A stretch of DNA of 64,000 nucleotides, from NCBI GenBank assembly GCA_965261915.1, contig CBDHDW010000013.1, forward strand, positions 1,408,491 through 1,472,490, given 5' to 3'. Both the position numbers and the translations under genes were made by a program. Positions 4,324-19,657 of the stretch are shown piece after piece (positions within the stretch are counted from its first letter, which is position 1; the number at the start of each line of letters is the position of its first letter). This DNA is from Candidatus Poriferihabitaceae bacterium (GTDB taxonomy: Bacteria; Pseudomonadota; Gammaproteobacteria; Arenicellales; Poriferihabitantaceae). Below the pieces are notes generated by a model that ran no database searches, had not been told where the DNA came from, and saw only the letters and a program-made list of their open reading frames with translations.

Positions 4324-5986
4324 ACCCAAATCCCCAGATAGAGTAGCATCAGCGCTTCAGGGCTCGGTGAATCCCTCTTTCAAGCCTTGTGGCTGGCCAT
4401 TACAGCAAATTATGGTGGCTAGTGCCGAGAGGTTTACTCAAAAACCGCTGTTCGGTGCATTATCAGTGCTAAATCGGCTATTTTTGACGCACCTGTCCTG
4501 CAGAAGCCGTTATTCTTGTTCTATGTCGGGTTAAATGGGCGGCGCTTCAAACTCCTTCAGTGCCAGCAGCACTCGTTCCAGTAGTAGTCGGTGGTTTTCC
4601 CGCATTTTTACCAAGAGTTGACGTCCCGTTCTAACCACTTTTGCCGCGATGGCGTACAGCCGCCAGCGCAGTGTTATCGCACGATGCTGGGACAACTCCC
4701 CCGGCAGCAACTGACGCATGAGGGCACATAGATTGTAGGAGAGTGCGGAGATTAAAAAGTACAGCACATTGGCAGCAAAATCTGAACACGGCAGGGTGTC
4801 GCCACCAAAATCTCGTTTCAGTTCCTTGATTCGGTTCTCGCTGTCCTCGCCACGCTGGTTGTACCAGTGGACAATCTCGCTATCGCTAAGGCTATCCCGA
4901 TTAGTGGCAATCGCACGATAAATATAAGCACCTGAGTTTATTTCCTCTGAACTGTTTTCTGAGCTATCTTCTGAATTATCTGATGAATCTAAATCCAGAC
5001 TCGCCTGGCCGGTAACGGCTGTTCTCTGAATGATAAGGGTGAAGGGTTTTTCATACTCACCGATGCAGAAACTGGTGCGGTAGGTATCCTGACCATTGAC
5101 CGCTTTGTCTTTTTTATCCAGCAAAGGCTGCCAGTCCGAAGCGCTTGCCGCTGCTATCTGCGCGCGCAGTGCGGCGCTGGTCTTGGCGCGAATGGCATAC
5201 TCGATACCCTGCTTATCACAATACTCAATGACTTTTGTTTGGTAGCCGGCGGCGTCAATACGCAGCGCCTTCACGGTACAGTCTTCCGGGAGCGACTGCT
5301 GGCATTGCTGGATAAACGGCTTATTATCTTTCGCTGGCGGCACATTGCCGTGACGGAAATCCACGGCCACGATCTGCCCGGTTTCCGCAATATGCCCGAC
5401 CATCGGCATAAAACCCTTGTTCTTGTTGTAAGTCCACCGTGCACCCGCTTTATGGGCAACAATTTCAGTGGCATCAATGTCCAGTGTGACTTCCTTACAG
5501 CGATGCAAGGCTACCTTCAATAAGGCTTTATTCACCTTTACCCAGGCAGCCTGGATTTGCGGCTGGCTTCCCATTCGCCTGAGCCAATCTCCAATCGTGG
5601 TCGCCTGGGGAAGTTTCTTGAGATCCAGCACGGTGCGCAGTGCTTCATCATCCTGAAGGTGGCGAACCTCATCCAGGTGAAAACTGCCTTCATGCTGCAT
5701 CAGGATGAGGGTCTTGATGAACTCCGAGGGCTTATACCCACGATTGCTTTTAGGCTGGGGGAAGTGCTTGTCGATTCGCTCAGACAGGTTCAGGGAGTCC
5801 ATTAGTTGAGCAATCGCCAATAAACCGGCACGAGAGGTGAGTAAATCGTTCGTTGTATCGAGTTTGTAGGGTAGAATAGTCATCAGCCTTGAGCTGTGCA
5901 CCCATTGGGTGATGGTGGGTTTAAGAGCAAACCATTATACAGCCAAGGCTTCCTGCGTTTAAGAGATTTCTATCTGGGGATTGGGG
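4324..5986 (-). mobile_element. IS1380-family insertion sequence, copy 1 (~1663 bp)
   Basis: Terminal IRs are (A)CCCAAATCCCCAGATAGA at the left and TCTATCTGGGGATTGGGG at the right (17/18 match). Single transposase ORF. Left flank ATAC (4320-4323), right flank CAAA. Boundaries are +/-1 bp. Confidence 0.85.
4531..5901 (-). CDS. IS1380-family DDE transposase (456 aa; has an extra SEDS in an acidic Ser-rich linker)
   Basis: The layout matches ISEcp1/IS1380 transposases as I recall them: N-terminal LTSRAGL, DIDATEI...KGYNP-like region, RIDAAGY, YNQRGEDSENRIKELK. Confidence 0.85.
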   Translation of the reverse strand: MHSSRLMTILPYKLDTTNDLLTSRAGLLAIAQLMDSLNLSERIDKHFPQPKSNRGYKPSEFIKTLILMQHEGSFHLDEVRHLQDDEALRTVLDLKKLPQATTIGDWLRRMGSQPQIQAAWVKVNKALLKVALHRCKEVTLDIDATEIVAHKAGARWTYNKNKGFMPMVGHIAETGQIVAVDFRHGNVPPAKDNKPFIQQCQQSLPEDCTVKALRIDAAGYQTKVIEYCDKQGIEYAIRAKTSAALRAQIAAASASDWQPLLDKKDKAVNGQDTYRTSFCIGEYEKPFTLIIQRTAVTGQASLDLDSSDNSEDSSENSSEEINSGAYIYRAIATNRDSLSDSEIVHWYNQRGEDSENRIKELKRDFGGDTLPCSDFAANVLYFLISALSYNLCALMRQLLPGELSQHRAITLRWRLYAIAAKVVRTGRQLLVKMRENHRLLLERVLLALKEFEAPPI

Positions 5987-6155
5987 CAAATAAGTTATTT
6001 ATTTTATTGTAAAGGTGCTAAAGTTCGAGCACGTATTTGTGAGACCAAATGTTGAGCCAATACGTTTCGTTAAACGGTAGTTTGTAAAAATTTTATTTTT
6101 TCGTTACTGATTTATTTTCGCCGCAAAGCGGCTGTATTTTTTAGAGGTTGTTAGT

Positions 6156-6368
6156 ATGTCAGATGAGTTAGTTACCGGGATCGTTAAATGGTTTAACGAT
6201 GCAAAAGGATTCGGATTTATCGAGCGTGAAGGCGAAGCGGATGTTTTCGTTCATTACCGCGCAATCAATGGCGACGGACGCAAAACACTACACGATGGTC
6301 AACAAGTGACTTTCGAAATCGCTGAGAGCGACAAAGGCCTTCAGGCTGGAAACGTTACACCGGTTTAA
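6156..6368 (+). CDS. csp: cold-shock protein, CspA family
   Basis: 70 aa. [15 protein letters not shown] and DVFVHY are the RNP1/RNP2 motifs. Long AT-rich 5' leader. Confidence 0.95.
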
Positions 6369-6375
6369 GCTCAGT

Positions 6376-6405
6376 TGGCTTGCTTAGCGGCAAGCCATCG
6401 TTTTA
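6376..6405 (+). terminator. rho-independent terminator after csp
   Basis: TGGCTTGC-TTAGCG-GCAAGCCA followed by TCGTTTT. Confidence 0.6.
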
Positions 6406-6541
6406 GTTGTAGTCGAGATGCCGGTAAGGTCTCGAGTTTTAGCCCGGTCAGGCTTTTTCTAATTTTGTCTGGCGAGGTTTGGATGCTGGCGACCAGATTT
6501 TGTTATTCTTTTCATTCTCTCTGTGCTGCTTTTCCTTTTGA

Positions 6542-6880
6542 TTAGGCGATTCTCAGTCCATTTGCCACTTCACTGTCCGGGCTCAGCAATACCACTCCGT
6601 CCGCAGCCACAACACCCAATACCAGAACTTCCGATTTAACTCCGGCTATCTTCAGGGGTGGAAAATTAGTCACTGCAACCACCTGCTTTCCTGGTAAGTC
6701 TTGCCGAGCGTAGTGCTCGGTTATTTGGGCCGATGTGGTTTTCACGCCAAGCTCTTCACCGAAATCCACTGCCATTACATAAGCAGGCTTTCTTGCCTTA
6801 ACGTTATCGTGCGCAGCGGTTACGGTTCCAACATGAATGCAAACATTCATGAAATCTTCGATACTAATTGTGTTGTTCAT
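6542..6880 (-). CDS. tRNA-binding domain protein (CsaA/YgjH-like)
   Basis: 112 aa. Pattern GTV..A......KPAYVM.VDFGE..G.K.TSAQIT........L.GKQV.AV.NF.P.KIAG..SEVLVLG. Confidence 0.8.
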   Translation of the reverse strand: MNNTISIEDFMNVCIHVGTVTAAHDNVKARKPAYVMAVDFGEELGVKTTSAQITEHYARQDLPGKQVVAVTNFPPLKIAGVKSEVLVLGVVAADGVVLLSPDSEVANGLRIA

Positions 6881-6931
6881 GTATTATTCCGGTTTTACTT
6901 TTTAACGCCAGCACAGATACAAAAATAATCG

Positions 6932-7546
6932 ATGCTAATAAATTTAGAAGCGCTAAGCACCCCCCAAGTTTACTTTACAATGACGCAGACCGTCATGCCG
7001 AGACCTGTGGCCTGGGTATTGTCCGAGAATGAAAACGAAACCTATAACCTCGCACCCTATTCCTATTTCAATGCAGTAAACAGCGATCCTCCGCTGGTTA
7101 TGTTCTCTGTCGGCGTGCAGGATGACGGATCTTTGAAAGACACCTTGGTGAATGTTCAGAAGCGATCAGAATTTGTCATTCATATTGCAAGCTGTGATCA
7201 ACTCGCGGATTTAAACCAAAGTTCAGCCACATTACCGCCCGGCGAGTCCGAAGTTACTGCTGGAGATTTATCCTTAAGCGCCGTAGAGCGTTTCAGGATG
7301 CCTCGATTAACCGATGCCAAAGTTGCGTTCATGTGTTCCGTGTTTAAAATTGAAACCATCGGCAATGTAAACCAACATCTGGTTTTTGCTGAAGTCAATT
7401 CGATCTATGTCGCGGATGACTGCACTGAAACTAACGACAAAGGCCGCCTGCAAATCAAAGCGGATGCCATCGAACCGCTCGCTCGTCTTGGGGCCGGTCA
7501 ATACGCCTCATTTGGAGAAATCCTGAAAGCGCAGCGACCAGCCTGA
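6932..7546 (+). CDS. flavin reductase-like (FMN-binding split-barrel) protein
   Basis: 204 aa. MPRPVAWVLSENE...YNLAPYSYFNAV..DPPLVMFSV is typical of the flavin reductase domain. Confidence 0.75.
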   Translation: MLINLEALSTPQVYFTMTQTVMPRPVAWVLSENENETYNLAPYSYFNAVNSDPPLVMFSVGVQDDGSLKDTLVNVQKRSEFVIHIASCDQLADLNQSSATLPPGESEVTAGDLSLSAVERFRMPRLTDAKVAFMCSVFKIETIGNVNQHLVFAEVNSIYVADDCTETNDKGRLQIKADAIEPLARLGAGQYASFGEILKAQRPA

Positions 7547-7566
7547 GTTGATTTAAGCAGGTGCCG

Positions 7567-8193
7567 TCAGCAGAGTTCGTTAATTGCTGACAGCATCGAA
7601 TCCAGCGACTCGAAATTAACTGAAATGGGCGTTGCGCGATTTTTATTCAGCACCACCAGCGACGGAAACCCCTGGATACCAAGCTGACGAGAAAAATTGA
7701 TTTCGTCAATTAATATCTGATTTGTAGCGTTCGAGTTTAATGCGGCATCGAATTGCCCAATATCCATTCTGAGATTTTCTGCAATTTCAATCAGCGTTTG
7801 ATTGTTCGATGGATTCTTTGCCTGGAGGTAGTAAGCGAGCTGGATTCCCCTGATCATGGGCCGCTCCCAATCATCTCCCTGAGCGCGTGCGGCAATGACT
7901 CCCCGGCAAGCGGGATAGGTTGAACGTCGAGGCTGGCATTCTTTCCAAAAATCAAAATTGAAAACGGTGCCTGGAACTCGCTCAGATATCGTTCTCCAAA
8001 CCTCTTGAAGATGCGCTTGCATTTGTTCAGGCATGGCTTCATTCGAATCCGGGGCGAGTCCCCCGAGGACTCGGTAATGGTTGATGTTGTGCGGGAGTTT
8101 CTCAATGAGCTTTTCGTATTGAGGCGCAAATGCCCAACACCAGCTGCACATTGGATCGTGAATATAGACAAGTGACGAATAATTATTTTCCAC
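7567..8193 (-). CDS. DsbA-family thioredoxin-fold protein
   Basis: 208 aa. YIHDPMCSWCW active-site-like CxxC and a C-terminal GFPSLVV motif. Confidence 0.8.
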   Translation of the reverse strand: MENNYSSLVYIHDPMCSWCWAFAPQYEKLIEKLPHNINHYRVLGGLAPDSNEAMPEQMQAHLQEVWRTISERVPGTVFNFDFWKECQPRRSTYPACRGVIAARAQGDDWERPMIRGIQLAYYLQAKNPSNNQTLIEIAENLRMDIGQFDAALNSNATNQILIDEINFSRQLGIQGFPSLVVLNKNRATPISVNFESLDSMLSAINELC

Positions 8194-8196
8194 GGT

Positions 8197-8955
8197 TTAT
8201 CTTCCTCCCGCACAATCAAGAATCGCGCCCGTGCAATACGATGCCTTGTCGGACAATAACCAGACTATCGTCTCGGCAATTTCTTCTGGTTTACCGGGTC
8301 TCGCTAGCGGTATTGCGTGTCGCACCCGCTCCAACCTGCCCGGTTCACCGCCTTGAGCATGAATATCCGTTTCGATAAAACCCGGTCTAACCGCATTAAC
8401 ACGGATGCCCTCTTTCCCAACTTCATTTGCCAGACCAATCGTCATGGAATCAATTGCGCCTTTGGAGGCAGCATAATCTATATATTCATTCGCCGAACCG
8501 ATTCGGGACGCCACCGAAGAAACATTAACAATACTACCGCCAGCACCCCCGTATCGAGCAGACATTCTTAATACCGCTTGCTTTGCACACAAAAAACTTC
8601 CCCTGACATTGGTAGCAAAAACCCGATCCAGACGATCCGAATCCATTTCGTCAAGGCGCATTTGCTGCTCGAGAGTGCCGGCATTGTTTACCAGTCCTGC
8701 CACTACTCCAAGCTCGTTTTCAGCAAAATCAAACAGCCCTGCAACAGATTCTTCATCGGCAATATTGGCTTCATACACCACGGCAACGCCGCCGGCGCTG
8801 CGAATGCCGGAGACCACGGAGTCAGCCGAATTTTTGTCATTCATGTAATTGACGACGACCTGCCACTTTTGCCGCGCAGCCAGTGCTGCCGTTGCCGCAC
8901 CGATACCGCGCCCCGCGCCCGTGACCACCAAAGTATTACTCTTGGTGATATTCAC
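8197..8955 (-). CDS. SDR-family oxidoreductase
   Basis: 252 aa. TGAGRGIG, NNAG and S...YAASK catalytic motifs. Confidence 0.9.
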   Translation of the reverse strand: MNITKSNTLVVTGAGRGIGAATAALAARQKWQVVVNYMNDKNSADSVVSGIRSAGGVAVVYEANIADEESVAGLFDFAENELGVVAGLVNNAGTLEQQMRLDEMDSDRLDRVFATNVRGSFLCAKQAVLRMSARYGGAGGSIVNVSSVASRIGSANEYIDYAASKGAIDSMTIGLANEVGKEGIRVNAVRPGFIETDIHAQGGEPGRLERVRHAIPLARPGKPEEIAETIVWLLSDKASYCTGAILDCAGGR

Positions 8956-9066
8956 GCAATATTCACACTCAGAATGATAGCGTTATCCTGTTTTTTCTTA
9001 CCCGTTAATCTAAACCAATGAAACCAATTTATCACGATGCCGCCAACAGTTCCAGTTTTTTACGTA

Positions 9067-10716
9067 ACCCAAATCCCCAGATAGAGTAGCATCAGCGCTT
9101 CAGGGCTCGGTGAATCCCTCTTTCAAGCCTTGTGGCTGGCCATTACAGCAAATTATGGTGGCTAGTGCCGAGAGGTTTACTCAAAAACCGCTTTCGGTGC
9201 ATTATCAGTGCTAAATCGGCTATTTTTGACGCACCTGTCCTGCAGAAGCCGTTATTCTTGTTCTATGTCGGGTTAAATGGGCGGCGCTTCAAACTCCTTC
9301 AGTGCCAGCAGCACTCGTTCCAGTAGTAGTCGGTGGTTTTCCCGCATTTTTACCAAGAGTTGACGTCCCGTCCTGACCACTTTTGCCGCGATGGCGTACA
9401 GACACCAGCGCAGAGTTATCGCACGGTGCCGGGACAACTCCACCGGCAGCAGAGGACGCATGAGGGCACATAGATTGTAGGAGAGTGCGGAGATTAAAAA
9501 GTACAGCACATTGGCAGCAAAATCTGAACACGGCAGGGTGTCGCCACCAAAATCTCGTTTCAGTTCCTTGATTCGGTTCTCGCTGTCCTCGCCACGCTGG
9601 TTGTACCAGTGGACAATCTCGCTATCGCTCAGGCTATCCCGATTAGTGGCAATCGCACGATAAATATAAGCACCTGAGTTTATTTCCTCTGAACTGTTTT
9701 CTGAGTTATCTGATGAATCTAAATCCAGACTCGCCTGGCCGGTAACGGCTGTTCTCTGAATGATAAGGGTGAAGGGTTTTTCATACTCACCGATGCAGAA
9801 ACTGGTGCGGTAGGTATCCTGACCATTGACCGCTTTGTCTTTTTTATCCAGCAAAGGCTGCCAGTCCGAAGCGCTTGCCGCTGCTATCTGCGCGCGCAGT
9901 GCGGCGCTGGTCTTGGCGCGAATGGCATACTCGATACCCTGCTTATCACAATACTCAATGACTTTTGTTTGGTAGCCGGCGGCATCAATACGCAACGCCT
10001 TCACGGTACAGTCTTCCGGGAGCGACTGCTGGCATTGCTGGATAAACGGCTTATTATCTTTCGCTGGCGGCACATTGCCTTGACGGAAATCCACGGCCAC
10101 GATCTGCCCGGTTTCCGCAATATGCCCGACCATCGGCATAAAACCCTTGTTCTTGTTGTAAGTCCACCGTGCACCCGCTTTATGGGCAATAATCTCGGTG
10201 GCATCAATGTCCAGTGTGACTTCCTTACAGCGATGCAAGGCTACCTTCAATAAGGCTTTATTCACCTTTACCCAGGCAGCCTGGATTTGCGGCTGGCTTC
10301 CCATTCGCCTGAGCCAATCTCCAATCGTGGTCGCCTGGGGAAGTTTCTTGAGATCCAGCACGGTGCGCAGTGCTTCATCATCCTGAAGGTGGCGAACCTC
10401 ATCCAGGTGAAAACTGCCTTCATGCTGCATCAGGATGAGGGTCTTGATGAACTCCGAGGGCTTATACCCACGATTGCTTTTAGGCTGGGGGAAGTGCTTG
10501 TCGATTCGCTCAGACAGGTTCAGGGAGTCCATTAGTTGAGCAATCGCCAATAAACCGGCACGAGAGGTGAGTAAATCGTTCGTTGTATCGAGTTTGTAGG
10601 GTAGAATAGTCATCAGCCTTGAGCTGTGCACCCATTGGGTGATGGTGGGTTTAAGAGCAAACCATTATACAGCCAAGGCTTCCTGCGTTTAAGAGATTTC
10701 TATCTGGGGATTGGGG
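9067..10716 (-). mobile_element. IS1380-family insertion sequence, copy 2 (~1650 bp)
   Basis: Same IRs as copy 1. Left flank CGTA, right flank ATAC (10717-10720). Lacks the 12-bp linker insert and has a 1-bp deletion near 9190. Confidence 0.85.
9273..10631 (-). CDS. IS1380-family transposase (452 aa)
   Basis: Near-identical to 4531-5901. Confidence 0.85.
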   Translation of the reverse strand: MHSSRLMTILPYKLDTTNDLLTSRAGLLAIAQLMDSLNLSERIDKHFPQPKSNRGYKPSEFIKTLILMQHEGSFHLDEVRHLQDDEALRTVLDLKKLPQATTIGDWLRRMGSQPQIQAAWVKVNKALLKVALHRCKEVTLDIDATEIIAHKAGARWTYNKNKGFMPMVGHIAETGQIVAVDFRQGNVPPAKDNKPFIQQCQQSLPEDCTVKALRIDAAGYQTKVIEYCDKQGIEYAIRAKTSAALRAQIAAASASDWQPLLDKKDKAVNGQDTYRTSFCIGEYEKPFTLIIQRTAVTGQASLDLDSSDNSENSSEEINSGAYIYRAIATNRDSLSDSEIVHWYNQRGEDSENRIKELKRDFGGDTLPCSDFAANVLYFLISALSYNLCALMRPLLPVELSRHRAITLRWCLYAIAAKVVRTGRQLLVKMRENHRLLLERVLLALKEFEAPPI

Positions 10717-10720
10717 ATAC

Positions 10721-12371
10721 ACCCAAATCCCCAGATAGAGTAGCATCAGCGCTTCAGGGCTCGGTGAATCCCTCTTTCAAGCCTTGTGGCTGGCCATTAC
10801 AGCAAATTATGGTGGCTAGTGCCGAGAGGTTTACTCAAAAACCGCTGTTCGGTGCATTATCAGTGCTAAATCGGCTATTTTTGACGCACCTGTCCTGCAG
10901 AAGCCGTTATTCTTGTTCTATGTCGGGTTAAATGGGCGGCGCTTCAAACTCCTTCAGTGCCAGCAGCACTCGTTCCAGTAGTAGTCGGTGGTTTTCCCGC
11001 ATTTTTACCAAGAGTTGACGTCCCGTCCTGACCACTTTTGCCGCGATGGCGTACAGACGCCAGCGCAGAGTTATCGCACGGTGCCGGGACAACTCCACCG
11101 GCAGCAGAGGACGCATGAGGGCACATAGATTGTAGGAGAGTGCGGAGATTAAAAAGTACAGCACATTGGCAGCAAAATCTGAACACGGCAGGGTGTCACC
11201 GCCAAAATCCCGCTTCAGTTCCTTAATCCGGTTCTCGCTATCCTCGGCACGTTGATTGTACCAGTGAACAATCTCGCTATCGCTAAGGCTATCCCGATTA
11301 GTGGCAATCGCACGATAAATATAAGCACCTGAGTTTATTTCCTCTGAACTGTTTTCTGAGTTATCTGATGAATCTAAATCCAGACTCGCCTGGCCGGTAA
11401 CGGCTGTTCTCTGAATGATAAGGGTGAAGGGTTTTTCATACTCACCGATGCAGAAACTGGTGCGGTAGGTATCCTGACCATTGACCGCTTTGTCTTTTTT
11501 ATCCAGCAAAGGCTGCCAGTCCGAAGCGCTTGCCGCTGCTATCTGCGCGCGCAGTGCGGCGCTGGTCTTGGCGCGAATGGCATACTCGATACCCTGCTTA
11601 TCACAATACTCAATGACTTTTGTTTGGTAGCCGGCGGCATCAATACGCAACGCCTTCACGGTACAGTCTTCCGGGAGCGACTGCTGGCATTGCTGGATAA
11701 ACGGCTTATTATCTTTCGCTGGCGGCACATTGCCGTGACGGAAATCCACGGCCACGATCTGCCCGGTTTCCGCAATATGCCCCACCATCGGCATAAAGCC
11801 CTTGTTCTTGTTGTAAGTCCACCGTGCACCCGCTTTATGGGCAACAATTTCAGTGGCATCAATGTCCAGTGTGACTTCCTTACAGCGATGCAAGGCTACC
11901 TTCAATAAGGCTTTATTCACCTTTACCCAGGCAGCCTGGATTTGCGGCTGGCTTCCCATTCGCCTGAGCCAATCTCCAATCGTGGTCGCCTGGGGAAGTT
12001 TCTTGAGATCCAGCACGGTGCGCAGTGCTTCATCATCCTGAAGGTGGCGAACCTCATCCAGGTGAAAACTGCCTTCATGCTGCATCAGGATGAGGGTCTT
12101 GATGAACTCCGAGGGCTTATACCCACGATTGCTTTTAGGCTGGGGGAAGTGCTTGTCGATTCGCTCAGACAGGTTCAGGGAGTCCATTAGTTGAGCAATC
12201 GCCAATAAACCGGCACGAGAGGTGAGTAAATCGTTCGTTGTATCGAGTTTGTAGGGTAGAATAGTCATCAACCTTGAGCTGTGCACCCATTGGGTGATGG
12301 TGGGTTTAAGAGCAAACCATTATACAGCCAAGGCTTCCTGCGTTTAAGAGATTTCTATCTGGGGATTGGGG
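10721..12371 (-). mobile_element. IS1380-family insertion sequence, copy 3 (~1651 bp), head-to-tail with copy 2
   Basis: Same IRs. ATAC on both sides (10717-10720 and 12372-12375). Confidence 0.85.
10928..12286 (-). CDS. IS1380-family transposase (452 aa)
   Basis: Near-identical to the other two, with a clustered patch of substitutions at 11198-11267. Confidence 0.85.
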   Translation of the reverse strand: MHSSRLMTILPYKLDTTNDLLTSRAGLLAIAQLMDSLNLSERIDKHFPQPKSNRGYKPSEFIKTLILMQHEGSFHLDEVRHLQDDEALRTVLDLKKLPQATTIGDWLRRMGSQPQIQAAWVKVNKALLKVALHRCKEVTLDIDATEIVAHKAGARWTYNKNKGFMPMVGHIAETGQIVAVDFRHGNVPPAKDNKPFIQQCQQSLPEDCTVKALRIDAAGYQTKVIEYCDKQGIEYAIRAKTSAALRAQIAAASASDWQPLLDKKDKAVNGQDTYRTSFCIGEYEKPFTLIIQRTAVTGQASLDLDSSDNSENSSEEINSGAYIYRAIATNRDSLSDSEIVHWYNQRAEDSENRIKELKRDFGGDTLPCSDFAANVLYFLISALSYNLCALMRPLLPVELSRHRAITLRWRLYAIAAKVVRTGRQLLVKMRENHRLLLERVLLALKEFEAPPI

Positions 12372-12397
12372 ATACCCATGTTAGTCCAAAGCAGTAA

Positions 12398-13150
12398 TGT
12401 CCCCTTTTGACTTCTTCAGGAGCGGTTATGACACCGATTTTTTGCTCCTGCAAAATCGGCATACCGTACATCTATATTAGTGACCTAGTGGATGTATTTC
12501 GTGAAGTTCGCAGGGTATTGAAGCCCGATGGCACATTCTGGCTTAATATCGGTAATACATATTCCTCCGGTGGTAGGAAATGGCGCGATGCTGATGATAA
12601 AAACAAAGGGCGTGCTATGTCTTACCGCCCACCTACCCCACCCGGACTAAAGAAAAAAGATTTAATTGGTGTGGCTTGGCTCTTGGCTCTTGAATGCCAG
12701 AAAGATGGTTGGTATCTACGCAACGACATAATATGGAATAAACCAAATTGTCAGCCTGAAAGTGTCAAGGATCGGTTGACTATTTCTCACGAATATCTAT
12801 TTATGTTTTCAAAGTCTGAACGGTACTATTTCAACCAAGATGCTATAAAAGAAAACACAACAAATGGTAATGGAATAAAAAACAAAAGAACTGTGTGGTC
12901 AATAAATACTGAACCATGCCCAGAGGCTCACTTTGCGGTATTTCCCAGGGCATTGGTTCGGCCTTGTATTTTAGCTGGCAGCAGAAAGGGAGACCTCGTT
13001 CTAGACCCTTTTTATGGTGCTGGGACGGTTGGCATTGTTACTAAAGAACTTGATAGGAAGTGCGTGGGTATTGAGTTGAATGACGAGTATATAGACATAG
13101 CAGATAAACGAACTGAAATAGTCCAGTCCTCCCTTATACTTGAGGTATAA
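12398..13150 (+). pseudogene. 5'-truncated beta-class N4/N6 DNA methyltransferase
   Basis: Has REVRRVLKPDGTFWLNIGN, NDIIWNKPN, SHEYLFMFSKS, HFAVFPRAL and C-terminal motif I VLDPFYGAGTVG. The N-terminal (D/S)PPY motif IV region is absent and there is no credible ATG. Confidence 0.7.
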
Positions 13151-13902
13151 CAAACTCCCACTCTGCATGCACACGACAATAATCTTTGTTCAAGCTCTTG
13201 ATCTGCAATTTTCTTTCACCGCCGCCATCAAAATACAAGTTTAGTATTGTGGTATCTTGTTTATCATGTGCATAACAATAACCCGGTTTTGGAAATTGCT
13301 TGCTATTCAGTTTCATTTCAAGTTTCCCTCCGCTGGCAAGCTCTAATACTGATATTGGAATTTCCACAAGTTCGTATTTCCTAGTGTAGCGACTTTTGGA
13401 GAGTACGGAGGGTGAAAATCTTTTCATGGCTTTCCATATGCCTAAAAAACTGATTTCTTAAACCTACGAGATCAGTTGGGCTGTCACCCCAATCTCCTTT
13501 TCCCAGTTCCATAAACTTGCTTATCCATAGCGTTTGTTCTTTTATATTTTTATCTGCTTGGGTTTTTAATGACAACTTAACTCCATCAACGGTGATGTCA
13601 TGACCAGGATTTCCTTTCGGAGCCAATTCGGCTTTGTGACCACTCAGGTTTAAAACATTTACAAGGACGTGCTCAAATTTATCTTTACTGAATGGTTCAG
13701 ACGAGAAGCTATGATGTACACGCATTGCGTCACCGAAATTTTGCAATGTGATTTCATCAAATAGATCACTTTCATTCAGAGTGAATTCATAGTCGGCAGC
13801 GTACACGGAAACAACACGTTGAATCCGGTGTAATTGACCAGCTGTCAAATCTGGGATTGACCGAACTAATGATTCTATTATTTTTTGTTTATCGTGGTTC
13901 AT
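13134..13902 (-). pseudogene. frameshifted type II restriction endonuclease-like gene (two overlapping ORFs 13381-13902 and 13134-13427)
   Basis: PD-(D/E)xK-like GHDITVDGVKLSLKT. The reading frame switches within 13381-13427 (...KIFTLRTL / SKSRYTRKYELVEIP...). Convergent with the methyltransferase gene, overlapping it by 17 bp. Confidence 0.55.
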
Positions 13903-13923
13903 GCCTTCCTCATTTCTTTTCTC

Positions 13924-13995
13924 GCCTAACGCCTCGCATCAGCGGCTGAGGGGAGCGTCAGCTCACCGAAGTCCGACTGAATGCGATTGTTATAC
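13924..13995 (-). other. integron attC recombination site of the cupin cassette (72 bp)
   Basis: Read on the - strand: R'' GTATAAC (includes the cupin stop), L'' TCGCATTCAG, L' CTGATGCGA, R' GTTAGGC (= GTTRRRY). One bulged base in the L arms. Confidence 0.8.
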
Positions 13996-14301
13996 GCTGC
14001 CTTCATTTTCAACAACCAAAATTCGAGCCTCTCCAATTGGGTGCGCAACGTGTTCCGTGCCAGTAGAGGCGTAAAAGATATCACCACATTTTAGTATTGT
14101 AGAATTCTCCTCGCCATTTTCTCGGTAAAACATTTCTATCTCACCATCGAGTACCACAAAAACTTCTTCACCGTCATTTATGTGCCATTTATATGGCTGA
14201 TCAGTCCAATGTAATCTCGTCGTGATTCCGTTCATGTTTGCTATGTTTTTAGCTCCCCATGCCTTAGATGCCTTATATTCTTTTCCTTTTATGATTTCCA
14301 T
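13990..14301 (-). CDS. cupin-domain protein (integron cassette ORF)
   Basis: 103 aa. GEEVFVVLDGEIEM...GDIFYASTGTEHVAHP is the two-motif cupin signature. SD AAGG lies 7 nt before the ATG. Confidence 0.85.
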   Translation of the reverse strand: MEIIKGKEYKASKAWGAKNIANMNGITTRLHWTDQPYKWHINDGEEVFVVLDGEIEMFYRENGEENSTILKCGDIFYASTGTEHVAHPIGEARILVVENEGSV

Positions 14302-14336
14302 AAAAATGCCTTCATCTGTGATTCATTGCGAAATGC

Positions 14337-14420
14337 GTATAACCGTTTCTTCTACGACACGTGTCGTATATTACGGTGGTCGTAAATTTATCGGGGGTGT
14401 TTGGACAATACATAGGCTTC
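14337..14420 (-). other. attI region; cassette insertion point G|TTATAC at 14343->14337
   Basis: GTTATAC on the - strand is the exact reverse complement of the cupin attC R'' GTATAAC. It lies between intI and the first cassette. Confidence 0.6.
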
Positions 14421-14626
14421 TTCCTTCCTGATCAAGGCGTTAGTGTGTGTGTTGAAATACTTTATCACGATTGATATACGAACGGTGTTGTATATTTAAT
14501 GACGCATATTTTGTTTTTGATTTTTAACGAATATGACTTAACCTATTGTTAATTAATCGAAATATGGAACATGACGACAGAGTGGTTATTTGTGATATCC
14601 GTCGTGCGTATATTTTTCGGTTGCGG

Positions 14627-14655
14627 TTGTAGAAAAATAGTAATCAGGATATGAT
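14627..14655 (+). promoter_or_regulatory. candidate intI promoter
   Basis: TTGTAG (14627-14632), 17-nt spacer, TATGAT (14650-14655), about 20-30 nt upstream of the intI start. Confidence 0.4.
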
Positions 14656-14676
14656 CATTTCAGGATTAACACAAGG

Positions 14677-15669
14677 ATGTGGATTATGGAAAATGTCAGG
14701 CTCCTGTTGGGGGACTCCAATCGCTTTTTTGATCGCTTTCGACGATATATTCGTTCTCAGAACCTCGCCTGGAAAACAGAGAAAACCTATTGCTCCTGGG
14801 TAAAGCGCTATATTCTGTTTCATAAAAAACGACATCCTGAGAATTTGACTCGATTGGATGTAGAGTCTTTCTTGCATGACCTGGCCGTGAACAGAAATGT
14901 TGCGGTGAATACACAACGCGCTGCGCTAAATGCGCTTTCTTTTCTTTACAATCGATTTCTGGATTTACCATTAGGTGAGCTAGAGTTCACCGGCGCGAAA
15001 AAATCACCTCGCATTCCGGTTGTATTTTCGCATCCGGAAGCGGTGAAAATTATGGCTTATCTCGCGAGTCCATATAAATTACTAGCTTCGATGATGTATG
15101 GATCGGGTCTCCGTGTTTCTGAAGTAGTGAGTCTGCGATATAAAGATATTGACTTCAGTCGAAGCACGATCGTGGTTCGTAGTGGCAAGGGAAATCGTGA
15201 TCGAGTCACCATTCTTCCCGAAACCCTTGTTGAGACATTAAAGCGACAATGCGAGTACGTTGGGAATTTACATGACTACGATAAATTACAGGGTTACGGG
15301 GAGGTCTATTTGCCAGATGCGCTATCAGGGAAGTGCAAATCAGCTGCAAAATCTCTTGCATGGCAATACCTGTTTCCGGCGAAAGAAAGCTCGGTTGATC
15401 CGCGGTCAGGTGAGATCAGACGCCATCATATTCAAACGAGAGCGGTGCAAAGGAAAGTGAAACAAGCGGTTGTGGGACTTGGGATAGAAAAGCATGCAAG
15501 CTGTCACACATTCCGACACAGTTTCGCTACGCAATTATTGCAGAAGGGCTACGATATACGGACCGTTCAGGAATTATTGGGGCATTCGGATGTGAAGATT
15601 ACCGAGATTTATACCCATGTTCTGAAGCAAGGGGCAAATGCGGTGCGCAGCCCGGTTGACGATCATTGA
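14677..15669 (+). CDS. intI: integron integrase IntI (tyrosine recombinase); alternative start at 14686
   Basis: WKTEKTYCSWVKRYILFHKKRHP, GLRVSEVVSLRYKDIDF, the IntI-specific insertion LPDAL..K...AAKSLAWQYLFPA...DPRSGEIRRHH, then CHTFRHSFATQLL and LGHSDVKITEIYTHV. Confidence 0.92.
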   Translation: MWIMENVRLLLGDSNRFFDRFRRYIRSQNLAWKTEKTYCSWVKRYILFHKKRHPENLTRLDVESFLHDLAVNRNVAVNTQRAALNALSFLYNRFLDLPLGELEFTGAKKSPRIPVVFSHPEAVKIMAYLASPYKLLASMMYGSGLRVSEVVSLRYKDIDFSRSTIVVRSGKGNRDRVTILPETLVETLKRQCEYVGNLHDYDKLQGYGEVYLPDALSGKCKSAAKSLAWQYLFPAKESSVDPRSGEIRRHHIQTRAVQRKVKQAVVGLGIEKHASCHTFRHSFATQLLQKGYDIRTVQELLGHSDVKITEIYTHVLKQGANAVRSPVDDH

Positions 15670-15671
15670 CT

Positions 15672-16904
15672 TTACCCGGCGAGGGCGTCTTCGTAAGGGT
15701 AGGTGGTGAGTAGCCCGTAGCCGGTTTCGGTTACCACTGCCTGTTGTTCGAGTTTTACACCATCTTTTTCACCTTCGGCGCCCATATAGCTTTCAATGCA
15801 TAGCACCATTCCGGGTTGTATGATTTCGTCATAGGGCAGGGGGCCTCGAAAATTGGGGTGGAGGTGTGGATATTCGTCACACATACCGACGCCATGTACG
15901 ATACAGGGATAGGCATTTTTCTGGTATTCGGATTCAACCGGGTAGGCATTTTCCTGGACTTCGCTGAAAAGCACCCCCGGTTTTATGAGCGATAAATTGT
16001 GTGCTATCTCTGCCATGGCCAGACGGTAAATTTGTTTTTGGCGTTTCGTGGGGCGGTCGGGGCCGCAGTGAAAGGTTCTCGACAGATCAGCGAAGTATCC
16101 CTTCGGACCGATCATGTCGGTGTCGAAACCCATTAAATCGCCGGATTCGAGTTTGCGCTCTGATGCCTCCTGCAGCCACGGATTAATTCTCGGTCCGGAG
16201 GCTAACATTCGTCCATCATGCCAGTCGCCGTTGTTTGCGAGATTGGCATAGTTGAGTAAGGCCCATAATTGCACCTCTGACACGCCGGGTTTGAGCGCTT
16301 GTTTTACTTTCGCTGCACCGTGTTCTGCTACCGCCACTGCCCAACGAATACAGGCAAGTTCATCTTCTGACTTGATTAGACGGGCACGTTCAGTAATCAA
16401 AACTCCGTCAACTACCTCGATGCCTCTCGCTTCCAGAGCTTGAGTAATGCCTGGATTGACATATTCGATCGCGATCTTTCGATTGGTTGCGCCAATCTCA
16501 ATCAAATAATTTTCAACCTCCAAAGCGAATTTTTCGGCAAATTGAGAAAGTTTGTCGCCGCCGTAAAAATACGAAATCGCCTGGCCGATTCTCTTATTCG
16601 AATCGGCAATTGCCGGCTCGAACGCGTTATACAACATGTATTGCCCATCACTTGCCAAAAACAGGTAGGTTGACGGGATATGCGACATAAAAGCGGCGTA
16701 GTTCCGATAGTTCACTGCGTATCGCAGGCTGATTGGATTCACCATCACGCAAACGGCTACGTCGTGCTTTTGCATTTCGGCTTGCAGCCGATCTGATCGA
16801 TACTGCTGCAGACGCTCGAAATTGATTTCAGGCATGGTCTGGAATTGTTTGAGGTCACTCCAATTGTCTTCGCAGACCATTCTGTCAGGGGAAGTTGAAT
16901 CCAT
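15672..16904 (-). CDS. M24-family metalloenzyme, DddP-like (candidate DMSP lyase)
   Basis: 410 aa with a pita-bread fold. FDTD-x9-D, then YPCIVHGVGMCDEYP, then CIESY...KLEQ. The ligand spacing matches what I recall for DddP rather than a classical prolidase. Confidence 0.55.
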   Translation of the reverse strand: MDSTSPDRMVCEDNWSDLKQFQTMPEINFERLQQYRSDRLQAEMQKHDVAVCVMVNPISLRYAVNYRNYAAFMSHIPSTYLFLASDGQYMLYNAFEPAIADSNKRIGQAISYFYGGDKLSQFAEKFALEVENYLIEIGATNRKIAIEYVNPGITQALEARGIEVVDGVLITERARLIKSEDELACIRWAVAVAEHGAAKVKQALKPGVSEVQLWALLNYANLANNGDWHDGRMLASGPRINPWLQEASERKLESGDLMGFDTDMIGPKGYFADLSRTFHCGPDRPTKRQKQIYRLAMAEIAHNLSLIKPGVLFSEVQENAYPVESEYQKNAYPCIVHGVGMCDEYPHLHPNFRGPLPYDEIIQPGMVLCIESYMGAEGEKDGVKLEQQAVVTETGYGLLTTYPYEDALAG

Positions 16905-18051: not shown

Positions 18052-19575
18052 GTAACTGCCCAGGTTGTTTTTAAGCGTATTTCAGTGTTGCGATAATCTG
18101 ATCGGCAGGCATCATCAGTGTTTCGATGATGTTCCATCCTTGTTTTCTCGCCGTTGTGATGACGCTGCGCAGGGTGGCAAAATCCTCTGCCCCTTGTTCA
18201 GACCTGAACCCTCCCGATATTTTCTGGCGTAACTTCATCATCCGCAGGTCGCGTTCAGCTTCGTTGTTTGTGAATGGCACGTCGGGATCTGTCAGAAAGC
18301 GCAGGGTGCCTTCCTTGTGATCGCGCAATCGTAAAGCCAGATTATGTCCTGTCCGTCGCTTCTTGCGCCCCCGTCTTCCGGGTTTTGGCGGCACGAGTGG
18401 AGGCAATTCCTCATGGAAACCCAATGCAGCGGTGATGATCCTGTCGTATCGCCGATTAATAAGCGCAACAAGCGGTGTTGAAACCGCCACGCCCTTATCC
18501 CGCGCGGCCTGTGTGACATGGTGCGCACGCCGCAGTAGCCTTTGCATCTGACCAGCCCAATCTTCCTGTTCGATTTCGACCAACGCTTGCAGTTCCCGTA
18601 AATGGTGTGCATTGCACAACGCATGGGTAACACCATCCAGCGTGAAGTAGGGCTGCCAATGATCATGCACGATACAGCCCGTGAGATTGGATAACAGATT
18701 ACCGCGTTTGCTGCTGACCCGGTAGAAAGCCAGAAGCGGTGTACAGGCAACGTGAAGCCATTGCAGGCACCCCGTAATCCGGAAACCCGTCTCGTCAAGA
18801 TGTTTGACGTGGACCTGTTGGGCGATCACATCCTGCAGGTGAGAAGCAACCCCCTTGAGCCGCTCTGATGCTTTGCGGTTCATGGCGGCCACAGTGGCAG
18901 GAACCAAAGGGGCATTGAACAAATCGGCCATTATTTGCGCCAGTCTGTCTTCCGGCAGGAAATGGGCGCATTGGAGATATGTTGCCACTCCGGCAATGCG
19001 TGGCCCGTACTGCACGGGTGCCTTCACCTCCAGAGGAAACGCAGCCTTGGTTGTTTCTCCACAGTGGCCACAAAGGCAGACATGTGCCCTGTGTTCCGTT
19101 GTCACCAGAGGCTGTGGCTCGGGCAGGTCAAACACCTGTCGTGCGGCGTAATCCTCTGCCATTGATGGCGACAGCGGTGTGCCACATTGCCCGCAGACAG
19201 AAGGAAAGTGATCTTCAACATGATCGGGGTCTGCCGTTTGGCACAGAGTGCTTCCCTTGTGGCTTTTCTGCCCGCCTGACTTTTTACCGGATTTTCTCCG
19301 CAGACTTTTGGTTCTGGGTTCAGCCTTGGGCTTCTTTAGGCCGTCGCTTGAAGGCGGCTTGCTACTGTTGCTGCTGTTCAAGCTGAGGCGACGCTCAAGG
19401 TCTTCAATGCGAGCCACAAGCAGGGCTATCGTTTGTGCATTCTTCTGCTTCAGCTCTTCATAAGCCTCAACGGAAACATAACCTTTGGGGGCGTCTGGAA
19501 AATTCATAATCTTAATGAATCACATCGGGATTCCTCAGGCAAAAGAATTATTCATTAGGGTACCTGGGCAGTTAC
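18052..19575 (-). mobile_element. compact single-ORF IS66-family element (1524 bp)
   Basis: 14-bp perfect IRs GTAACTGCCCAGGT. 8-bp TSD TGTCGTTC at 18044-18051 and 19576-19583. Confidence 0.9.
18071..19507 (-). CDS. IS66-family transposase (TnpC-type)
   Basis: 478 aa. N-terminal coiled coil, SSKPPSSD, CxxC...CxxC zinc motif, HLDETGFR, CNAHHLREL. Confidence 0.9.
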   Translation of the reverse strand: MNFPDAPKGYVSVEAYEELKQKNAQTIALLVARIEDLERRLSLNSSNSSKPPSSDGLKKPKAEPRTKSLRRKSGKKSGGQKSHKGSTLCQTADPDHVEDHFPSVCGQCGTPLSPSMAEDYAARQVFDLPEPQPLVTTEHRAHVCLCGHCGETTKAAFPLEVKAPVQYGPRIAGVATYLQCAHFLPEDRLAQIMADLFNAPLVPATVAAMNRKASERLKGVASHLQDVIAQQVHVKHLDETGFRITGCLQWLHVACTPLLAFYRVSSKRGNLLSNLTGCIVHDHWQPYFTLDGVTHALCNAHHLRELQALVEIEQEDWAGQMQRLLRRAHHVTQAARDKGVAVSTPLVALINRRYDRIITAALGFHEELPPLVPPKPGRRGRKKRRTGHNLALRLRDHKEGTLRFLTDPDVPFTNNEAERDLRMMKLRQKISGGFRSEQGAEDFATLRSVITTARKQGWNIIETLMMPADQIIATLKYA

Positions 19576-19657
19576 TGTCGTTCATTGTATTGGCTCTATG
19601 CTAAAGGGTAGACTTAAATCACCTTATCACAACTTTTAAACAGGATATGTCAATTTC

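Follow-up and report, generated by a model that had tools for sequence, protein, structure and literature searches.

Sequence evidence for a small chromosomal integron eroded by insertion sequences in a Candidatus Poriferihabitaceae bacterium

Introduction

Integron integrases (IntI) are set apart from other tyrosine recombinases by an additional domain of about 35 amino acids near the patch III region, and the cassette arrays that accompany them are expected upstream of intI, on the opposite strand. Among the described systems, the sedentary integrons of marine gammaproteobacteria, represented by the integrase VchIntIA and the VCR recombination sites of Vibrio cholerae, come close to the locus reported here, which lies in a stretch of 64,000 nucleotides (the window) from Candidatus Poriferihabitaceae bacterium (assembly GCA_965261915.1, contig CBDHDW010000013.1, positions 1,408,491 to 1,472,490 of the forward strand; all positions below are those of the window unless another contig is named). 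We conclude with high confidence that this locus is a complete chromosomal integron, comprising an integrase gene, an attI site, a cupin cassette with its attC site and a truncated restriction-modification cassette. A first-pass annotation, made from the DNA letters and their open reading frames (ORFs), had reported a small integron with IntI, attI and a cupin cassette; all three parts hold, but the extent of attI and everything beyond 13924 had been missed.

Like the V. cholerae system, the locus has intI divergent from the array, and its integrase carries the extra domain and aligns with VchIntIA over its full length; the predicted hairpin of its attC site also has extrahelical bases at positions 16, 20 and 24, as VCR2 does. 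It differs in scale and in detail. VchIntIA integrons hold tens to hundreds of cassettes, whereas one complete and one truncated cassette are present here; VCR sites are about 120-130 nt long, whereas the attC of the window measures 72 nt and is of the CATNCAG...CTGATG type; the first extrahelical base is G in VCR-type sites and A here, and no LexA box was found at the window locus. Integrons of this kind are already thoroughly known, and the locus leaves the understanding of them unchanged.

Results

The integrase

The integrase gene, intI, occupies positions 14677-15669 on the + strand and encodes 330 amino acids from the ATG at 14677, or 327 from the ATG at 14686, the start used in public gene calls. 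Its product scores 404 bits against TIGR02249, the NCBIfam model for integron integrases (cut-off 265), whereas the XerC and XerD models (TIGR02224 and TIGR02225) give about 134 bits each against cut-offs of 330-335, and do so in two separated stretches, the pattern that an inserted domain produces. A Pfam scan assigns it a SAM-like N-terminal domain (Phage_int_SAM_4) and a catalytic domain (Phage_integrase). VchIntIA (PDB 2a3v) aligns with it end to end at 260 bits, extra domain included, the segment YGEVYLPDAL...LAWQYLFPA...DPRSGEIRRHH of the window protein lying against YGGVWLPTAL...FRWHYLFPS...DPESDVMRRHH of VchIntIA. The extra domain keeps the W of LAWQY, the P of DPRS and the RRHH motif, and aligns with those of both VchIntIA and IntI1.

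In an alignment of five sequences (the window IntI, IntI1 and three environmental IntI; alignment A3), the catalytic residues R146, K171, H277, R280, H303 and Y312 are invariant. IntI1 is 46% identical to the window protein and has all six at the same residue numbers, and the equivalog model for class 1 IntI (NF011946) gives 297 bits, below its cut-off of 435. Taken together, these comparisons identify the product of 14677-15669 as an integron integrase and not a Xer recombinase, and intI apparently encodes an integron tyrosine recombinase that is intact in sequence. The first-pass annotation had proposed this ORF on the basis of its catalytic residues and an insertion found only in IntI proteins, a proposal that TIGR02249, 2a3v and the IntI1 alignment bear out: the extra domain is present in both pairwise comparisons, and the protein, rather than grouping with XerC/D and lacking the insertion, falls far under the cut-offs of the Xer models.

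The attC site

The attC site spans 72 nt, at 13924-13995 on the - strand. Read from 13995 to 13924, it runs GTATAAC AATCG CATTCAG TCGGACTTCGGTGAGCTGACGCTCCCCTCAGCCG CTGATG CGAGGC GTTAGGC, in which R'' is GTATAAC (13995->13989), L'' is CATTCAG (13983->13977), L' is CTGATG (13942->13937) and R' is GTTAGGC (13930->13924); the recombinogenic bottom strand corresponds to the + strand of the window. We scanned both strands of the 64 kb for this architecture (NNNNAAC, a 5-nt spacer, a 7-nt L'', a 6-nt L', a 5-6-nt spacer and GTTRRRY, 50-150 nt overall), requiring L'' positions 1-3 and 5-7 to pair perfectly with L' (3+bulge+3), and recovered a single site, 13995->13924, with 0.1 expected from first-order Markov randomisations.

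Seven attC sites of other integrons, none of them from the window, went into a covariance model, R1: four came from L085, an integron locus whose IntI is 67% identical to that of the window, one each from loci L009 and L054, and one from aadA1 on R100. The R100 aadA1 sequence was verified verbatim in 1962 plasmid records at 99% identity or above. With filters off, R1 matches the window at 13995->13924 (- strand) over model positions 1-62 of 62, with 47.7 bits and an E-value of 2.3e-9, the runner-up in the 64 kb scoring 13.4 bits. Across 83 other loci, most R1 matches in intI-oriented loci fall on the strand opposite to intI and upstream of it; the model's own training sequences account for four of these upstream matches (three in L085 and one in L009). 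Matches on the + strand, downstream of intI, occur in L025 (11570-11626) and L054 (11669-11772 and 12874-12975, one of the two being a training sequence), and their placement suggests that in L025 and L054 the integrase is inverted relative to the array. Rfam holds no attC family, and scanning against it gave chance-level matches alone.

To harvest sites from relatives, pairing of the box ends by minimum-energy folding recovered very few and was replaced by motif and covariance-model searches. The structure of the resulting 25 sites is 89% paired, with 67 cells changed on both sides of a pair (24.5 in shuffles) and a covariation score of 0.48, where slid registers reach 0.10 at most; the counts are biased in favour of the structure, since this alignment was fitted to R1 and the seven training sequences are part of it.

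Folding of the bottom strand of the window site yields a predicted hairpin of -17.6 kcal/mol (z = -3.4), better than that of the top strand, with A16, A20 and T24, counted from R'', extrahelical on the '' arm. Extrahelical bases are described at these positions, the base at 16 usually being G and a T being conserved at 23 or 24 (PMC5027507). By its boxes, its model match and its predicted fold, 13995->13924 is a real attC site. The 72-bp element claimed by the first-pass annotation, with the TAA held in R'', was present on re-reading, and a covariance-model search, the kind of check that it had proposed, returned the same coordinates; the predicted bottom-strand fold shows R and L boxes with extrahelical bases, as it had anticipated, so that its pairing of L'' with L' stands while its single bulged T gives way to three extrahelical bases.

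attI and the point of insertion

The attI element extends over about 175 bp (14511->14337, - strand) and lies about 165 bp upstream of intI. Its limits come from an unrelated metagenome contig, L087, in which two copies of the element, at about 300-475 and 5690-5960, stand without an adjacent intI and are 92-96% conserved relative to the window. The two copies, of about 170 bp, are identical through ...GAAGAAACTG|TT and ...GTCGTAGAAGAAACTG|TT and diverge after G|TT: one continues with TTGGGGC and a cassette encoding an HNH endonuclease, with its own attC, and the other with TTATAC and the cupin cassette. We therefore place attI at about 14511->14337, with core GTTATAC (14343->14337) and with its crossover between G14343 and T14342 on the - strand. 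Homology to L087 runs 170 bp upstream past GTTATAC, within a block that is 95.6% identical to window 13924-14511 and ends exactly at the last base of the attC R' box. Comparison of these natural variants confirms 14343|14342 as the attI crossover, at which the cassette would have been inserted at G|TT, and fixes attI to the nucleotide, which is rare for environmental integrons. R1 finds no attC within attI.

The G|TT signature had been noted in the first-pass annotation, and the divergence of the L087 copies at that point upholds it. Its two supporting observations were also recovered in the sequence: GTTATAC (14343->14337) is the exact reverse complement of R'' GTATAAC, and the downstream R', GTTAGGC, is a partial one, matching the complement of R'' at five of seven positions. 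Established integron biology (PMC5027507; PMC2727003) offers a route to this arrangement. IntI would bind the hairpin of the attC bottom strand, one strand would be exchanged with the double-stranded attI between G and TT, and replication would resolve the junction. The first six bases of the cupin cassette, TTATAC, complement its own R'' while the R' that now follows it (TTAGGC) belongs to the next cassette, an arrangement that this resolution by replication would explain.

Three TACGAC motifs lie in attI, two in direct orientation (14384->14379 and 14368->14363) and one inverted (14353-14358), and two of them make up a perfect 16-bp palindrome, TACGACACGTGTCGTA, at 14353-14368, 9 nt from the crossover. 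These motifs and the palindrome could be putative binding sites for IntI or the operator of a regulator. Further ACGAC-type motifs occur closer to intI, at about 14575 and 14608.

The cupin cassette

Cassette 1 is a complete gene cassette of 413 bp (13930-14342, - strand), with TTATAC as its first bases and the G of R' as its last. It carries an ORF of 103 amino acids (13990-14301, - strand) that matches Cupin_2 (PF07883, E 1.6e-7), has its TAA stop within R'' and is preceded, 8 nt upstream, by GAAGG, which is likely to be its ribosome-binding site. This ORF has more than 4000 homologues at 75-98% identity, the named ones mostly from marine gammaproteobacteria; it is intact and 98% identical to its homologue in L087. 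The cassette as a whole is 95.6% identical in L087, where another cassette (137 amino acids) comes next, whose R'', GCCTAAC, is the exact complement of its starting TTAGGC. The cupin gene, having no promoter of its own, would be transcribed from one in the attI or intI region. The fraction of G+C is 0.36-0.46 over 12.4-14.8 kb and 0.48-0.56 in the flanks, in line with the AT-rich cassette region that had been remarked on from the letters.

A truncated restriction-modification cassette

Beyond the attC crossover, where it starts with TTAGGC, lies the remnant of a second cassette (12376-13929, - strand) with two restriction-modification genes. The first encodes a SmaI-family type II endonuclease (PF17411; 13134-13902, - strand), with its ATG 27 nt past the crossover, and is frameshifted: a first part of 173 amino acids (13381-13902) covers PF17411 positions 4-160 (E 5.8e-44), and a second part of 97 amino acids in a different frame (13134-13427) covers positions 154-240 (E 9.5e-26). 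The second gene, which is convergent with the first and shares 17 bp with its 3' end, encodes an N4/N6 DNA methyltransferase (12398-13150, + strand; PF01555, E 3e-50) that is truncated at its 5' end, matching the profile from position 28. Residue 35 of the methylase pairs with residue 83 of CcrM (PDB 6pbd), an offset that puts the loss at about 48 N-terminal residues, and its frame runs into an in-frame stop 7 codons from the end of an IS1380-family insertion sequence (IS) at 12375. The lost part would presumably have included the DPPY motif, going by its position in CcrM; a search of the whole window gave no [DSN]PP[YFW] remnant in surroundings that would suit a methylase N-terminus. R1 finds no attC between the endonuclease and methylase genes or elsewhere in the window beyond the cupin site, and the two genes are therefore read as one two-gene cassette.

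This cassette is cut by the IS1380 element at 12375/12376 and has lost its distal part together with its attC. Two tandem IS1380-family copies (NF033539 transpos_IS1380, 309 bits) terminate the array at 9067-12375 on the - strand (about 9068-10716 and 10722-12371); their repeats are 1654-1655 bp apart, the copies are separated by ATACA and their terminal inverted repeats are CCCAAATCCCCAGATAGA. In our reconstruction, cassette 2 would once have carried a SmaI-type endonuclease and a convergent methylase, and the tandem IS1380 would have replaced the rest of the array. Other cassettes with restriction-modification genes have been described in integrons, the XbaI system of a Xanthomonas integron among those cited (PMC10661359). 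The two inactivations probably went together; as for the order of decay, loss of the methylase likely selected for, or followed, inactivation of the endonuclease. Between a 17-nt stretch near the left end of the IS1380 pair (9089-9105, GCATCAGCGCTTCAGGG) and the L' side of attC (13936-13952, GCATCAGCGGCTGAGGG), 14 of 17 positions are alike, probably by chance.

Genomic context

An identical IntI (P0001) is on record on a contig of 3.39 Mb, and a variant of the same 90% cluster (P0121) on one of 3.30 Mb. The next relatives are 74%, 73%, 67% and 64% identical, followed by many at about 60% or less; the locus of the 74% relative (L084) has the same neighbours, an M24 peptidase gene and a GST gene, and synteny is not shared with L085. 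Exact-sequence look-ups with the IntI, cupin and IS1380 proteins as read from the window gave no record. In species-representative genomes based on GTDB, the closest IntI proteins, at 57-60%, are those of a Cellvibrio metagenome-assembled genome (MAG), Neptunomonas antarctica and an unclassified proteobacterial MAG. The flanks of the window locus encode housekeeping genes for elongation factor G (EF-G), glycerol kinase and NAD synthase, the EF-G being 87% identical to that of Candidatus Spongiihabitans and 84-91% identical to other gammaproteobacterial sequences.

The megabase contigs, the conserved neighbours and the housekeeping flanks mark the locus as chromosomal and vertically inherited. 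It would not rank with the mobile integrons of classes 1-5, for which near-identity to IntI1-IntI5 is expected, IntI1 being the one directly compared, and ORF and family scans of the window detect no 3' conserved segment (3'-CS; qacEdelta1/sul1). With a single attC in 64 kb, it also lacks a large homogeneous attC array; given the one attC and the truncation by IS1380, the term that fits it best is small chromosomal integron, the name already given to it by the first-pass annotation and now backed by the identical IntI on the 3.39-Mb contig and by the flanks.

Several neighbouring features were recorded as well. The M24 peptidase gene (15672-16904, - strand) lies directly downstream of intI, convergent with it; its best family is the dimethylsulfoniopropionate (DMSP) lyase DddP, at 293 bits, well under the cut-off of 600. 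A third IS1380-family copy occupies 4325-5986, and ATACA flanks its left as well. A segment of 3 kb (5987-9066) separates it from the tandem pair and holds genes for a flavin reductase, a DsbA-like thioredoxin and a short-chain dehydrogenase; the segment is absent at the equivalent place in two related contigs, L081 and L082, described below, which suggests the IS-mediated insertion of a translocatable unit. An IS66-family element (18052-19576, transposase 18071-19507), flanked by GTCGTTC direct repeats, is absent from L081.

Erosion of the locus and alternative readings

One metagenome supplied two near-identical contigs (L081/L083 and L082) that match the window at 99.8% identity from 14539 through intI and the downstream genes. 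Between 14540 and the tandem IS1380, they consist of wholly different DNA, and attI and the cassettes are gone. At the place matching window 14540 lies a decayed IS1595-family element (L081 12365-13416, with its equivalent in L082) with the terminal inverted repeat TTACCTAATTACCACC...GGTGGTAATTAGGTAA; no target-site duplication is visible at it in L081 or L082. An inverted copy of the 11 nt that precede the element, ACAATAGGTTA, stands at L081 13451-13461, 34 nt past its other end, and past ACAATAGGTTA both contigs have a 56-amino-acid ORF and an MFS transporter gene, on the opposite strand.

Such losses favour a reading of the locus as a dead relic, in which IntI or attI is non-functional and the cassettes are frozen passengers heading for deletion, and a number of observations weigh on that side, against a complete and working integron. 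The loss in L081/L082, neither of which has an attI, and the IS1380 truncation together show ongoing erosion of the locus in this lineage, where it may no longer be under selection. The array is down to one and a half cassettes, the second pseudogenised and cut by an IS, and the neighbourhood is rich in IS, with three IS1380 copies and one IS66 element. The spacer between intI and attI (14512-14676), which is presumed to hold the intI promoter, is 99.8% identical to L081/L082 down to 14540 and shares just 29 nt (14588-14616) with L087. A consensus promoter scan gave one weak + strand site (14666-14694), and no LexA box (CTGT-N8-ACAG, at most one mismatch) was found between intI and attI. For the cassette promoter Pc, the scan found no - strand consensus promoter in 13850-14750, and the best candidate read by hand, TTGATC-N17-TGTATT (14435->14407), is weak. 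Within attC, the first extrahelical base is A and not the usual G, and the central spacer, which should be unpaired, is largely paired in the predicted fold, a feature that might lower recombination efficiency. The frameshift in the endonuclease gene could be a sequencing error. That the integron recombines and expresses its cassettes at present is something we infer from sequence.

Against the dead-relic reading stand an intI of full length in which every catalytic and extra-domain residue is kept, an attI and an attC that are structurally intact, and a cupin ORF that is intact and 98% identical to its L087 copy; we regard this reading as doubtful, but as the one alternative to be reckoned with, and favour an integron whose integrase, attI, attC and first cassette are complete.

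A second alternative accepts the integron and moves its crossover to G|TTAAGT at 14542->14536, which would make 14541-14343 (199 bp) a first cassette devoid of ORFs, with GTTATAC at 14343 as its R'. The homology of L081/L082 does end right after AACAATAGGTTA at 14540, inside a GTTRRRY-like heptamer, and an inverse copy of the heptamer at 14542 (AATTAAC, 6/7) lies 5 nt upstream of it. The break in L081/L082, however, coincides with the terminal inverted repeat of IS1595 and is explained by an insertion of that element. With filters off and the E-value relaxed to 10, R1 still gives no attC in 14343-14541, and L''/L' complementarity is not seen there by eye. The motif at the break site, GGTTAAGT, is not conserved in L087, which has GACTTAACT there, though the 170 bp downstream are, and the L087 copies of the element part only at the 14343 junction. 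On the IS1595 end, the absence of an attC by R1 and the L087 divergence at 14343, we rejected the crossover at 14542 as very improbable.

Least probable of all is that the 72-nt inverted repeat is a terminator or generic hairpin behind the cupin gene, in a locus of the In0 type with a solitary intI: it directly follows a stop codon, as terminators do, and is the one such site in the window, but no T-run comes after it, a terminator scan was empty, its RYYYAAC-type and GTTRRRY boxes accompany predicted bulges at 16, 20 and 24, and the reading is refuted by the full-length match of the repeat to an attC model made from other integrons and by L087, where the unit that it bounds has different neighbours.

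Discussion

We read the locus as a chromosomal integron, complete in the IntegronFinder sense of an intI with one attC or more, caught in the course of its erosion by IS. One strain retains attI with one and a half cassettes, and the series is continued by two near-identical contigs without attI and by one contig that keeps attI and cassettes while its junction lacks intI. The integrase is at most 74% identical to any other on record, the same protein and its cluster variant aside. Since A stands at position 16 of the attC hairpin instead of G, the site provides material for studies of attI/attC specificity, as well as a clean annotated example.

The last contig of the series, L087, raises a further question. 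An IS5-like end (...GGCTGTTAAAGCC|AAAATATACG) adjoins both of its attI copies, at the same nucleotide in each, and one copy lacks about 110 bp between AAATATACG direct repeats. The double attI could be a duplicated IS-plus-attI module or the product of a mixed-strain assembly. We think it improbable that the attI element of this lineage travels without intI in IS-bounded modules. If such modules were real and mobile, IS could seed cassette-acceptor sites that a resident IntI would serve in trans, a route of integron dispersal unlike that of CALINs (attC clusters without an integrase) or of transposon-borne integrons.

Comparison with known integrons

The class 1 integron shares several features with the window locus. 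The attC of aadA1 (Tn21/R100) has the same layout, position by position, with R''(7), 5 nt and L''(3+1+3) followed by L'(6), 6 nt and R'(7); the first cassette likewise enters at the G|TT of attI, and the catalytic residues bear the same numbers. The two differ in that their integrases share 46% identity, that there is no 3'-CS in the window and that the cargo of the window is not a resistance gene.

Closer kin are the environmental integrons whose IntI proteins are 57-74% identical, namely those of L084, L085, Cellvibrio sp. (L002) and Neptunomonas antarctica (L003). L084 shares the neighbourhood of intI, M24 peptidase and GST genes. L085 shares the attC family (ATATAAC AATCG CATGCAG..CCG CTGATG) and the presence of cupin cassettes, but has an unbroken array of about 12 small ORFs, whereas the array of the window is truncated by IS.

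The second cassette, finally, finds its counterpart in the restriction-modification cassettes of other integrons, such as that of XbaI in Xanthomonas (PMC10661359), in which, as here, endonuclease and methylase stand together directly after an attC crossover. The copy in the window differs from the XbaI cassette in being dead, through a frameshift, a 5' truncation and the loss of its attC, and in being SmaI-like rather than XbaI-like.

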